A stretch of DNA of 54,687 bases, the filler included, from Squatina squatina (Eukaryota): NCBI GenBank assembly GCA_031763465.1. It is 3 parts of 3 records of this genome, joined end to end, with 100 filler letters (N's around TTAATTAATTAA, not from the genome) between each part and the next. Parts side by side here need not be neighbours in the genome. Positions count along the whole stretch, not along the records: positions 39,485 to 54,687 come from JARFOE010000115.1; 2 more parts are not named here. One strand, given 5' to 3'. The notes beneath the pieces are model-generated. The model was given only the letters and a program-made list of their open reading frames with translations, made no database searches and was not told where the DNA came from. Positions 46,391 to 51,527 of this stretch are shown in pieces. A program made the position numbers and the translations under genes. The stretch's first letter is position 1. The number at the start of each line of letters is the position of its first letter.

Positions 46391-46463
46391 GAGTAGTGCC
46401 AAAGTGCTGACAGTGCAGGTAGTGATGAGGCCTTCTACTGCAGTGTAAGCACTTAACGTGCTC
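46391..46463 (+). ncRNA. miR-17-family pre-miRNA #1 (miR-17/106-like)
   Basis: 5p CAAAGTGCTGACAGTGCAGGTAG (46400-46422), one substitution from miR-17-5p with seed AAAGUGC. 3p ACTGCAGTGTAAGCACTTAACG (46437-46458) pairs with it. Confidence 0.92.
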
Positions 46464-48432
46464 CTTGTACACACCATCTTCCCTGAAGATCCAGCCTCTC
46501 CCTGATCGCAATCTTCCAATGCAGACTGTAGATCAATGATTGTACNNNNNNNNNNNNNNNNNNNNNNNNNNNNNNNNNNNNNNNNNNNNNNNNNNNNNNN
46601 NNNNNNNNNNNNNNNNNNNNNNNNNNNNNNNNNNNNNNNNNNNNNNNNNNNNNNNNNNNNNNNNNNNNNNNNNNNNNNNNNNNNNNNNNNNNNNNNNNNN
46701 NNNNNNNNNNNNNNNNNNNNNNNNNNNNNNNNNNNNNNNNNNNNNNNNNNNNNNNNNNNNNNNNNNNNNNNNNNNNNNNNNNNNNNNNNNNNNNNNNNNN
46801 NNNNNNNNNNNNNNNNNNNNNNNNNNNNNNNNNNNNNNNNNNNNNNNNNNNNNNNNNNNNNNNNNAAATGTTGGATGGCCTTGCCAGTGACGCTCACATT
46901 CTGAATGAATCTTTTTTTAAAAAAGAAAACAATCCCATGTAATTAAAGCAGAATTTATCATCCTTGCGTGGTGTATTTGTGGGCCTGGCCCCAGCCCTAA
47001 CCAACCTCTTGTTCCAGTTATGCCCCCAGCACGCTGGGGCGCTGAGGTGGAGACGCTAAAGGCTGTACAACGCTGATGCTCTGTGGGCGCTGAGATGGTG
47101 CAGGCTCGCTCTTGCTGAGTTGGCGACGAGAGAGCGAGTCCAGCACCAAATCCCAGCCCCAAGTAACTGTCCAGCTTGGGCAGGCTGAGCTCCAGATTCC
47201 CTGTGGAGGAGCGGTTCTGCTCGAGGGTCAGTGGGCGAAGGAGGGATGGGTTGCAAGTTAGCAGGGAAGGGTGATCATGAGTGCCCGCTGGCATTGCGAG
47301 CTGTTGGCTCAATGGCCAGCCTTCAGCACCTTGACTCGGTGAAAACCCGCACAGAACACTTCGGCTGTTAACTTGCTGTCCCTGTTTCTGGATTCTCCTA
47401 CACTTTCCTGACTTGTGACTGACCAGCAATTGTTTCCTGTGGGATCCAAGGGGAAGGAAGAACAATTTTGAGTGTGCGAAAAGATGATTTTTGAACAGAA
47501 TGGTGTATTTCTTTTTTTTTTCCCCTCTTTAAAACCCTTCAGTTTTTGCTCTGGGCCTTTTTGTCTCCTCTCCTTCCTGTTTTGTCCTGCTCCTACCACC
47601 TCTTCACTATATCTCCTCAGTCTATGGAAAGAGGCTGAATGTGAAAGATAGTTGGAGACAAAATTTGAAACGGGAAATCTCTGAATAATTGTGATTAAAT
47701 AATGGAGGTGAAATTCCTTTCGGTAATGATTTACTTTCCGCTAATCAGTGCTCTTGGTTTGACTGTACTGGATCATTGAAATCACCAGGTCAGATGTAAC
47801 GTGCTTTTTTTGGGGGTTGAGATGCAGAAGACCCAGGGTGAAGTAACACTGCCACGCAATGGTCTTTTACTTCAGTAAAGATTCAAAAGTGAGTTGGGTG
47901 TGTGGGGCAGTTTAAAAATTAATATTAAAAAAGGAATTCAGCCATATTTTAACAATCGGCACGAGGATGAAAGCATCAGAACTGTGACAGCCTATTGTTT
48001 CTATAATGTTGATTTACTTGAATAAGATTTTAATAGATCATGATGTTCCCTGCAAGTGCAAAGCAAATTGTGAATCTGTAATAAAAGCCTCTTGGAGGTT
48101 GCCACTTTTATTAGCGGTTAATCCAGCTTTCAAGGTGTATGTACCGTAAACTTTATCTTTTTTTGACGAACTCCCTTCCATAGTTTGCTCCTGTGAATAT
48201 TAAGGTTTTTGATGTGTTTTCGTAATCAATGAAGCATAACTCTGAACTCAGTGGCCACCCCCTCCCGATCCACCTCTATCCCACTGTGCCTGGCTTCAGA
48301 ATTGGCAGCCCCAGTCAGAGGCTTGTACAGACCTGGGCCTACTGAAAAGTTTGGAAATGATTTTTCTTTTTGGGGTGGGGGTGGTGTTTGTGAGATGGTG
48401 GTGGAGAGGGCAAGGGTGCTTATTCTGGGTCT

Positions 48433-48505
48433 GCAGTGCCAAAGTGCAAATAGTGGTAGGTAGTGCAGTGAATCCTAGCTACACTATTTACACTTCAAGC
48501 ACTGT
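48433..48505 (+). ncRNA. miR-17-family pre-miRNA #2 (divergent)
   Basis: 5p CAAAGTGCAAATAGTGGTAGGTAG (48440-48463). The 3' arm CTAGCTACACTATTTACACTTCAAGCACTG is complementary. Basal stem CAGTGC/GCACTG. Confidence 0.8.
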
Positions 48506-49684
48506 TGCACCTGATTGCTGACAGGAAATAAAGGAAACTGCCCTTTGACCCGGCCTTCATTTTGGATGGAACCCTCATTTACAACCACCATGGTGCTCTA
48601 TTTGTAAGTTATTGGGATGGATTTTTTAAACTAATGAAAATGTACAACTACAGCCTTCCCCAAGTCTGTATTGGTGGATCAAACCACACCGGTTTAGAAC
48701 AAACAAGCTATTTGATCGTGCAGCTGGCTTGCCCTGTTGAAGGTTGTTTTTCGGGAACGATTTTTCCTGCCCTCCCCACCCCTGCCTACTCCTGCAGACG
48801 TTGATTTGAGGTATGACTTTGGGGCACCAGCTGTGCTCCAGTAACCCCCTCAATTGGCTGTTCTTCATGTGTACCTCGACGGTGTGTGTCAACAAGTTAT
48901 TGAGCTGTTGGCAATCTGTCAAAGGCCTCNNNNNNNNNNNNNNNNNNNNNNNNNNNNNNNNNNNNNNNNNNNNNNNNNNNNNNNNNNNNNNNNNNNNNNN
49001 NNNNNNNNNNNNNNNCAGAGGGTGCTTTTCTGAGGCTGGGGCCGAGTGTTTGATGGGACAGTGTAGACTGGCAGCTTTAATCTGTATCTAACCCGTGCAG
49101 TACCTGACCTGGAAGTGTTTGGTGACGCGGGGCTGACTGAAATTAAGTGTTTAATTTCTCTGCGCTAACAATTCTCACTTTACGCACAGAAAGACCCGTC
49201 TACTTTTAACTTGTCCTTTTTTGTATTCCCTCTGGAATAGGGTCTGCCGCTTGGGGGTATTGAGGCTATTCAGCCTTGAACTCTGGGACCATCAGCTATG
49301 CTCTTTGACAGCCTTGTATAACTGTTGGGATTCTCTGATCTTGCATTGTTTTAATTTCTCCACCTTCCACAGCCCAGCCTTGTTCTGACAGCACGTCCTG
49401 CCCGTGTGCAGTTCTAAATCCTGACTTGGTTTTCTTTCATTCGCTCCCCATCAGTTTGTTGGATATCCTGCAAATTCCAGATAAAAAGGTGGCAGCAGCG
49501 AGCCCAGCAGGTACAGGCCTTGCCGTGTGGTGTTCGCTTCATCCTGAAGTGATCATAGGGAGGGGAAATTCTCAGACTTACTGGGGGGTGAGGAGGAGGT
49601 TTGATGCCCAAGGTACAAACACTGTTGCCCGTCCTAATGACTACAGCGACGACCCATCTTGAAACGCAGGAGGGTTGTGTCCAC

Positions 49685-49756
49685 GCAGCCCAAAAGTGCT
49701 TGTAGTGCAGGTAGTTGCATTGAAACCTACTGCAGAACAATCACTTTGAGCGCTGC
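49685..49756 (+). ncRNA. miR-17-family pre-miRNA #3 (miR-20/93/106a-like)
   Basis: 5p AAAAGTGCTTGTAGTGCAGGTAG (49692-49714). 3p ACTGCAGAACAATCACTTTGAG (49729-49750). Basal stem GCAGC/GCTGC. Confidence 0.9.
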
Positions 49757-50005
49757 TTGAATTCATGCGCCTGGACTACCTCGGGCCGAGAAGGATCAGC
49801 GGAAATCCAGATGTCTTGTGTGATGGCCGAGCAGTCGGCCTGGTCGGTTAGGTCTTTGGTTCGAGTCCTAACCCTGGATGAAGTCATTTCTCAGCGAGTT
49901 CTTTGNNNNNNNNNNNNNNNNNNNNNNNNNNNNNNNNNNNNNNNNNNNNNNNNNNNNNNNNNNNNNNNNNNNNNNNNNNNNNNNNNNNNNNNNNNNNNNN
50001 NNNNN

Positions 50006-50285
50006 TCTGCTCTCTCAGGTGGTTACAAAAGGTCCCAAGGCAATATTTGAAGAAGAGCAGGGTGTCCTGGCCAATATTTATTCCTCAACCAACATCACTA
50101 AACAACAGATTATCTGGTCATTATCACATTGCGATTTGTGGGAGCTTGCTGTGCGCACATTGGCTGCTGCGTTTCCTAAGTGACAACAGTGCACACACTT
50201 CAAAAGTACTGAATTGGCTGTAAAGTGCTTTGTGATGCCCTTAGGTCATGAAAAGAGCTATATAAATGAAATGTCTTTCTTTTGA
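50006..50285 (+). mobile_element. Deu-domain SINE, central domain and tail
   Basis: gtgtcctggccaatatttattcctcaaccaacatcac...cacttcaaaagtactgaattggctgtaaagtgcttt...ctatataaatg. Confidence 0.8.
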
Positions 50286-51365
50286 AGCTTGGAACCATCC
50301 ACCCATGATTGTCCCAGAACTTTATCCTGTTGTTTTCTCCTGAAGGCGCTGGCTCTTTACACGGCTTCTGGCCAGCCTTTTCTTTGGAACCTCATCCATT
50401 CATCATGCAAGACTCTGGACAGCGAGTGTCAGCAGGAAATTCCACCATGGGGTGCATCGCAGCCAGGCCAGCCCTGTTGTCGCCCAACAGCCTGCAGTTC
50501 CTGTTGACATCAAAAGCTTGCAGGATTCTTCAGCTCCTTGATGTCTCCCAGCCTGCATGTTGTGGTTAGTTAAATATTCCCTGAGTAAATCCTTGCCTAA
50601 ACTTGACTCCCCTGTGCAGCTCCTGTACTGGAGGGGTGGATGTTCCCCCTTAACCATATTAATTGTCAGATTCATCTATCGAAGTCCGACTGTTTAGAAG
50701 ACCATGCCCTTAACCAGCAAGAGTGCAACATGAGGAATTTGCCATCATGCTTTTCTTTCTCAATTTGTATTCCCTGATCAGATATTCCCTTACATGGACC
50801 CAGCTCTATTACAGCTCCTGCTGTCTTGCTGGGGGAATGTTGTTTAAAAAGCCAATAGCTTTTCCTGTTAATCCGATCCTTCACGGCTCAGTTGAGTCTT
50901 TCCCAGTTCCTAAACAGNNNNNNNNNNNNNNNNNNNNNNNNNNNNNNNNNNNNNNNNNNNNNNNNNNNNNNNNNNNNNNNNNNNNNNNNNNNNNNNNNNN
51001 NNNNNNNNNNNNNNNNNACGCCTTACATACACTCTCTCAATTGAGGTAAATGTACTTGATATGTATATTCACTTAACATCATTCAGTAACCAAAGCACTC
51101 AGATGCACTCTGCTTTCCGTCTTACTATTTTACAGAAAGGTTAAAGTTCACCTATGAACATTGAAATGACAGTGTCTATTATTAGTCATTTTTAAAATTT
51201 ACTAATCGGGAAATACAATTAGCCACATCACGATTCCCAATTACATGAGGCCGGGGGGCTAATGTACTCAAGTTACTTCTGATTTTGATTTTCTTCAGAG
51301 TTCTGCCAGAGCAAGCCATTCCCTTGTGTGTCTCTCGTACTCACTGGCTTTTCTTCTTGTTGAAG

Positions 51366-51527
51366 ATGGGGATTTACAGATCTGCCTGCACAAGGGCCTG
51401 ACCTGCTGCACGAAGAGAATGGAGGAGAGGTATCAAATAGTGGTTCGCAGAGAGGTCCTTCAGAGCATCCAGTTCCTGAGCTTTGAGCTGAAATACAGGA
51501 TCGAGAAGAATGGCGGGGCTTTCCAAG
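51366..51527 (+). CDS. Glypican-3/5 subfamily (glypican-5-like) exon 2, 162 nt
   Basis: gaag|ATGGGGAT...TTCCAAG|GTAGG, phase 1/1. Encodes DGDLQICLHKGLTCCTKRMEERYQIVVRREVLQSIQFLSFELKYRIEKNGGAFQ, fitting the GPC3/5 pattern DLQVC....TCC..KMEE.YQ...ELK......AFQ. Confidence 0.88.

Follow-up and report, generated by a model that had tools for sequence, protein, structure and literature searches.

A probable Squatina squatina orthologue of the cartilaginous-fish b copy of the Mir-17~92 cluster, with a glypican-5b exon as its neighbour

Background

The Mir-17~92 microRNA cluster serves MirGeneDB 2.1 (PMC8728216) as the worked example of a fourth cluster copy (2-alpha, or "b") that was kept in chondrichthyans and entirely lost in bony fishes. 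In a stretch of 54,687 nucleotides (nt) of Squatina squatina DNA (assembly GCA_031763465.1), which as a whole is called the window here, three miR-17-family hairpins precede a glypican exon on the same strand. We put the probability at about 95% that this locus is the orthologue of the b cluster, carrying Mir-17-P1b, -P3b and -P4b, with glypican-5b as neighbour or host. The original prediction, made from the sequence alone, had proposed a further whole-genome-duplication copy retained in cartilaginous fish.

According to Supplementary Table 2 of PMC8728216, the elephant shark (Cmi) b set consists of Cmi-Mir-17-P1b, -P3b and -P4b, Mir-19-P2b, Mir-92-P1b and Mir-92-P2b, and the cloudy catshark (Sto) has an identical six-gene set; the new names in that supplement include no Mir-17-P2b. 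For the four clusters of elephant shark PMC8789304 counts 7, 6, 7 and 5 genes, and its b column is empty for coelacanth, human and gar. As tabulated in Dataset S1 of PMC11848845, elephant shark P1b and P3b are 2,328 nt apart and P3b and P4b 1,471 nt (3,799 nt from first to third); Mir-19-P2b comes next, at +311 from P4b, and then the two Mir-92 genes, at +1,365 and +1,653. The corresponding catshark entries place P4b 3,885 nt from P1b and Mir-19-P2b at +1,245 from P4b. All six elephant shark b genes are recorded inside LOC103188800, a same-strand gene of a glypican orthogroup, 11 kb past the start of the gene, on a scaffold that also bears smc4/Mir-15-P1b and Mir-551-P2 (PMC11848845).

The same source describes the elephant shark a and c clusters as spanning 753 and 1,345 nt, with a miR-18-type P2 gene and Mir-19-P1 between P1 and P4, and the d cluster as having two Mir-17 genes, P1d and P4d, 1,656 nt apart in mcm7 introns. 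The b and d clusters are homeologues (MirGeneDB 2.1, PMC8728216), and b is one of the four copies that arose from two vertebrate genome duplications. The available text of PMC2775919 and PMC13473885 contains nothing on shark paralogues, and further literature searches brought up no source more specific than the papers named here.

Three miR-17-family hairpins

Three same-strand hairpins with an AAAGUGC seed had been predicted, and all three matched the Rfam mir-17 family (RF00051) on the plus strand. A scan of the whole window at gathering thresholds returned only two matches, hairpin 1 (46390..46467; 66.9 bits, E 2.7e-14) and hairpin 3 (49682..49759; 52.2 bits, E 7.9e-10), both of which exceed the RF00051 gathering score of 49.5 bits. 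Hairpin 2 (48430..48508) was aligned over the full model (1-80) with 41.8 bits (E 4.2e-7) in a scan by E value of positions 36000-54687 only. Since this is under the gathering score, hairpin 2 was assigned by its seed, fold and position in the cluster, as a divergent member of the family. The scan by E value gave 13 matches in all, and the ten besides the three hairpins were antisense shadows or weak.

Each hairpin forms a single stem-loop; the fold z-scores are -2.56, -3.12 and -2.98 for hairpins 1, 2 and 3, and equally good folds were found in 3, 0 and 2 of 200 shuffled sequences, respectively. The 5p starts were predicted from the family alignment, with AAAGUGC placed at nt 2-8, and fall at 46400, 48440 and 49692; the 3p arm of hairpin 1 would end at about 46458. 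The predicted precursors are 59-60 nt long, and all three 5p arms have the seed at nt 2-8 and are also identical at nt 13-16. By count the seed was not enriched in the window (16 matches against 10.05 expected, with 6 of 100 shuffles reaching 16), so that the evidence for the hairpins is the match to the family model and not the seed. Judged by sequence and predicted fold, the three hairpins are genuine miR-17-family precursors.

A UG at -14/-13 is present in all three hairpins (the TG frequency is 0.082, which cubed gives 5.4e-4). Two of them also have a CNNC at +17/+18; hairpin 2 has none at +16 to +18. Both motifs, which we take to be Microprocessor signals, were examined post hoc.

When the 5p arms were compared by eye with the human sequences tabulated in PMC2899009, none of the three was identical to any of the six human miR-17-seed miRNAs there. 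The original prediction that no arm equals miR-17, 20a/b, 106a/b or 93 was therefore borne out, though hairpins 1 and 3 come very close. Hairpin 1 differs from miR-17 at one position (nt 10) and equals miR-106b over nt 2-19, and hairpin 3 has two differences from miR-106a and two from miR-20a. Hairpin 2 is the divergent one, with three substitutions and a one-nucleotide insertion within the arm relative to miR-20b.

A further AAAGTGC site at 19932 on the plus strand, in a stretch that folds at -32.3 kcal/mol, was regarded as a chance occurrence; it had no match at the Rfam gathering threshold and resembles the family in its seed only. This site lies outside the region covered by the scan by E value.

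Gene content and spacing

The predicted 5p starts of hairpins 1 and 2 are 2,040 nt apart and those of hairpins 2 and 3 1,252 nt, which gives 3,292 nt from first to third. In common with the elephant shark and catshark b clusters, the locus has three Mir-17 genes with the AAAGUGC seed on one strand, no miR-18-type gene, and spacing of about 2 kb followed by 1.3-1.5 kb, in a cartilaginous fish; a glypican-family neighbour on the same strand would be a further common feature. The Squatina spacers are 12-15% shorter than those of the elephant shark and include gaps of 320 N and 86 N. We found no miR-18-seed site on the plus strand between the three hairpins; a P2 gene could sit inside one of these two gaps. 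The Squatina locus differs from the two described b clusters in being from another species and in that no Mir-19 or Mir-92 members are found in its sequenced part. Dataset S1 of PMC11848845 assigns elephant shark P3b to a separate sequence cluster (ID 272; P1 and P4 are in 12 and P2 is in 57), and the divergence of hairpin 2 is in keeping with its being the P3b gene.

The original prediction had treated spacing of 1.2-2 kb as setting the locus apart from the known clusters. The spacing itself stands but is not unique, as the elephant shark d cluster is also spaced by kilobases (PMC11848845). This raises the reading in which the hairpins belong to the shark counterpart of miR-106b~25 and scaffolding attached the glypican exon to them, a possibility that the patchwork nature of the window and the identity of hairpin 1 with miR-106b over nt 2-19 might seem to encourage. 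That likeness is expected, however, given that b and d are homeologues. The d cluster as described holds two Mir-17 genes in mcm7 introns, and here there are three. Among 127 plus-strand stop-free stretches of at least 28 amino acids in 42828-54687, moreover, none matched an MCM protein (shorter exons would escape), and a Pfam scan of the same stretches gave a single match, the glypican exon. That scaffolding should by chance have attached the very gene in which the b cluster of elephant shark lies is also unlikely, and we consider membership in the d cluster very improbable.

The glypican exon

A 162-nt exon with AG..GT ends (51366..51527) follows the hairpins on the plus strand and matches the Pfam Glypican domain (PF01153, E 9.7e-9), as expected of the GPC3/5-type second exon that had been predicted there. 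It corresponds to the second coding exon and aligns with residues 53-106 of the Heptranchias glypican-5b protein. All 12 database matches were chondrichthyan glypican-5b or glypican-5-like proteins, with 75-94% identity; over 54 amino acids the exon is 96% identical to Pristiophorus, the closest, and 94% to Heptranchias glypican-5b. Searches of the window by tblastn, first with 4 proteins and then with 29, recovered this second exon and no first or later glypican exon.

Trees were built from 46 and 31 named non-human proteins, which were hand-picked from 205 matches after exclusion of matches without a source name. In the full-length tree of 46 proteins, from which the window exon was dropped as too short, 32 proteins formed a glypican-5b clade (support 97/93) that contains sharks, rays, chimaera, sturgeon, teleosts, lungfish, coelacanth, amphibians, reptiles, birds and platypus. 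GPC5 (10 birds and mammals) joined GPC3 (3 birds, one of them named) at 100/98. The exon-only tree (32 rows, 53 columns) placed the window exon among elasmobranch glypican-5b proteins (96/81), with the glypican-5b side supported at 100/99, and approximately unbiased (AU) tests rejected its joining GPC5 (p 0.013) or GPC3 (p 0.009). The exon, as far as its sequence and tree placement tell, belongs to glypican-5b, a clade of the GPC3/GPC5 subfamily that is separate from both GPC5 and GPC3; its divergence from these two had been noticed at the outset. Since the clade reaches platypus, the full-length tree indicates that the glypican neighbour was not lost along with the cluster in bony vertebrates.

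Zebrafish gpc5b and gpc5c (PMC3828384) fall in the same clade as the exon, as do the proteins that NCBI names "glypican-5-like" in sharks, rays, sturgeon, reptiles, birds and platypus. The text of PMC3828384 suggests that extra fish gpc5 copies possibly came from individual gene duplications, whereas our tree has a gnathostome-wide clade. That paper places zebrafish gpc5b beside gpc1a on chromosome 22 and gpc5c with gpc1b on chromosome 2, a linkage that fits a fourth pair of a GPC3/5 and a GPC1/2/4/6 gene, in a GPC1-linked fourth paralogon. The chicken proteins of the glypican-5b clade (P0072, P0085, P0109 and P0129) are labeled "Glypican 2" or "glypican-5" at source. Platypus has a glypican-5b, and there is no therian name among the best 120 matches.

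The clusters beside GPC5 (a) and GPC3 (c) also flank glypicans, and the hairpins might in principle be a diverged and expanded version of one of them. Hairpin 1 is 1 nt from miR-17, hairpin 3 is 2 nt from both miR-20a and miR-106a, and the trees contain no shark GPC5 or GPC3 against which the exon could be placed. Yet the exon has 77-94% identity with shark glypican-5b proteins, as against 48-54% with 10 GPC5 and 44-50% with 3 GPC3-clade proteins, and the AU tests reject both groupings. The a and c clusters of elephant shark are compact, below about 1.4 kb, with a miR-18-type gene and Mir-19-P1 (PMC11848845); the present locus spans more than 3.3 kb, and no such hairpins were seen. This reading is already largely refuted, and we give it a next to negligible chance.

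In gene content and spacing the locus thus agrees with the b cluster and with none of the other three. Human miR-17~92 (a), miR-106a~363 (c) and miR-106b~25 (d) have the Rfam family and the seed in common with the Squatina hairpins, and would be paralogues of this locus, not orthologues. The a and c clusters have lost P3 and are compact, and d has lost P2 and P3 and lies within MCM7; the Squatina locus, we infer, has retained P3, and its neighbour is glypican-5b.

Missing members and other points against the assignment

Several observations weigh against the b assignment, the first being that half of the expected set was not found. No Mir-19-P2b, Mir-92-P1b or Mir-92-P2b was detected by Rfam over the whole window, by the scan by E value of 36000-54687 or by seed scans. 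None of the 13 matches in 36000-54687 was to miR-19, miR-92/25 or miR-18. The seed scans of the whole window gave 12 sites for miR-19, 6 for miR-92/25 and 5 for miR-18, and by eye none was family-like beyond the seed. The contig ends 213 nt past the predicted 5p start of hairpin 3, and the nearest expected position of Mir-19-P2b is +311 or +1,245. Because the expected positions are at or beyond the contig end, the three genes, together with further DNA of the host gene, probably lie in the 100-N gaps that follow hairpin 3. These gaps (49906-50005 and 50918-51017) surround a 912-nt piece, and the interval 49906..51017 is the likely place of the missing genes.

The absence of miR-19 and miR-92 matches could instead mean that the b cluster has decayed in Squatina through loss of Mir-19-P2b, Mir-92-P1b and Mir-92-P2b. 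Hairpin 2 might then be non-functional, with which its score under the gathering level and its lack of a CNNC at +16 to +18 would agree. On the other hand, it retains the seed, nt 13-16 and the basal UG, its fold has the best z-score among the three hairpins, and the sequence stops before the place where Mir-19-P2b is expected. The elephant shark and the catshark both keep all six genes as listed in PMC8728216, and we hold decay to be improbable.

The other points against the assignment concern its foundations. The names P1b, P3b and P4b were given to hairpins 1, 2 and 3 by order, number and spacing, and the case for orthology is built from gene content, spacing and the glypican clade. One of the three hairpins, as described above, stands below the gathering score. 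Both trees are without shark GPC5 and GPC3. The orthogroup of LOC103188800 is labeled "gpc2" in the dataset of PMC11848845. That gene is likely the one that encodes the glypican-5-like protein P0011 of our set.

The link between hairpins and exon is also weak within the window itself. The window has 43 N gaps, mostly of exactly 100 N, and it joins unrelated loci across them. Along it are strung an RNF111_N-domain exon, a HAUS1 exon, ATP synthase alpha exons, NELF-A exon 1, the last exon of an NSD gene, a dihydropyrimidine dehydrogenase exon, the cluster and the glypican exon, in blocks that presumably come from different loci; neighbours within a block are in a sensible order but compressed. 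The stretch that holds the three hairpins has a 100-N gap at either end, and the gaps inside it, of 320 N and 86 N, are of odd size. Two 100-N gaps separate hairpin 3 from the exon, so the 1,674 nt between them in the window is not a measured distance, although strand and order are the same. The predicted linkage to a same-strand glypican accordingly draws its support from elephant shark, where the dataset of PMC11848845 documents it for LOC103188800, more than from the window's own join. The predicted position of the cluster upstream of the glypican is likewise correct for the order in the window, while in elephant shark the cluster is inside the annotated span of the glypican gene.

Even so, assignment to the b cluster remains by far the best account of the locus. 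A further duplication copy kept in cartilaginous fish is supported by the MirGeneDB b cluster together with the gene content and spacing found here. The suggestion that such a copy might already be in MirGeneDB also proved right, as the b cluster is listed there for elephant shark and catshark. The proposed loss in mammals was correct but too narrow, since the loss is reported for all bony fishes including tetrapods (MirGeneDB 2.1; PMC8789304). For elephant shark and catshark, the cluster is already catalogued along with its wide spacing and the glypican that hosts it, and the Squatina locus is most probably an ordinary orthologue.

Other features of the window

In 1900-9909 the RNF111_N-domain exon, which we take to be ARK2N/C18orf25-like, and the HAUS1 exon are on the minus strand and are followed by the ATP synthase alpha exons on the plus strand, compressed over 100-N gaps. 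The first coding exon of NELF-A (11698-11907, plus strand) and the last exon of an NSD-family gene with its C5HCH domain (21631-21918, minus strand) are arranged tail to tail, with LINE fragments between them at 12221-15569. The single dihydropyrimidine dehydrogenase exon (27333-27414, plus strand; E 1.3e-9 to PDB chains) stands alone and is more evidence of joined unrelated loci.

The same 12-nt A/T palindrome with 44 N on either side occurs at 22796-22807 and 39429-39440, which suggests an artificial spacer introduced when the assembly was processed. Repeat fragments at 41975-42330, 50020-50280 and 40857-41140, partly as inverted copies, presumably derive from a tRNA-derived SINE-like element. 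No tandem repeats were found in 42000-54687.

Proposed expression and function

MicroRNAs are made by Drosha/DGCR8 cropping of a primary transcript, cutting by Dicer and loading into Argonaute. By this standard pathway, one plus-strand polycistronic primary transcript would span the three hairpins, Drosha/DGCR8 would crop each precursor of about 60 nt, Dicer would cut it in turn, and Argonaute loaded with the 5p arm would repress mRNAs with sites for the AAAGUGC seed. As the seed (nt 2-8) and nt 13-16 are identical in all three arms, they would be expected to contribute dosage rather than a new target set, adding to the repression of targets already served by the miR-17/20/106/93 members of the other clusters. 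For duplication-derived paralogues in general, PMC8789304 likewise argues that no new target set is to be expected.

A CpG-rich segment (42828-43348; observed/expected 1.01, GC 0.50) lies two pieces upstream of the piece with the cluster, across 100-N gaps, and is a candidate promoter or first exon of a host transcript. In elephant shark (Callorhinchus) glypican-5-like isoforms (P0206, P0209 and P0210), the signal-peptide exon is absent and four other residues are joined to exon 2; XP_007907208.2 is an isoform with such a four-residue alternative start. This hints that a host transcript of the cluster may splice into the glypican. The corresponding pattern of an alternative first exon was matched twice in the window, against 3.0 matches expected, which is not above chance.

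A wider proposal can be put forward only tentatively, and we think it rather unlikely as a whole. A cluster transcript with its own upstream promoter may splice into exon 2 of glypican-5b, giving an isoform without a signal peptide and co-regulation of the two in cartilaginous fish. In that case glypican-5b may be an under-recognised fourth ohnologue that outlived the cluster in bony vertebrates, as far as platypus, and P3b may be the only surviving Mir-17-P3 in jawed vertebrates. A narrow search of the literature found no match for an under-recognised glypican-5b ohnologue.

The cluster coordinates and the glypican host having been tabulated already, what the Squatina window contributes is a further species, whose copy is incomplete and gapped. 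The locus illustrates how cartilaginous fish retained an entire growth-regulating microRNA cluster that bony vertebrates lost, whereas the adjacent glypican survived in both groups.

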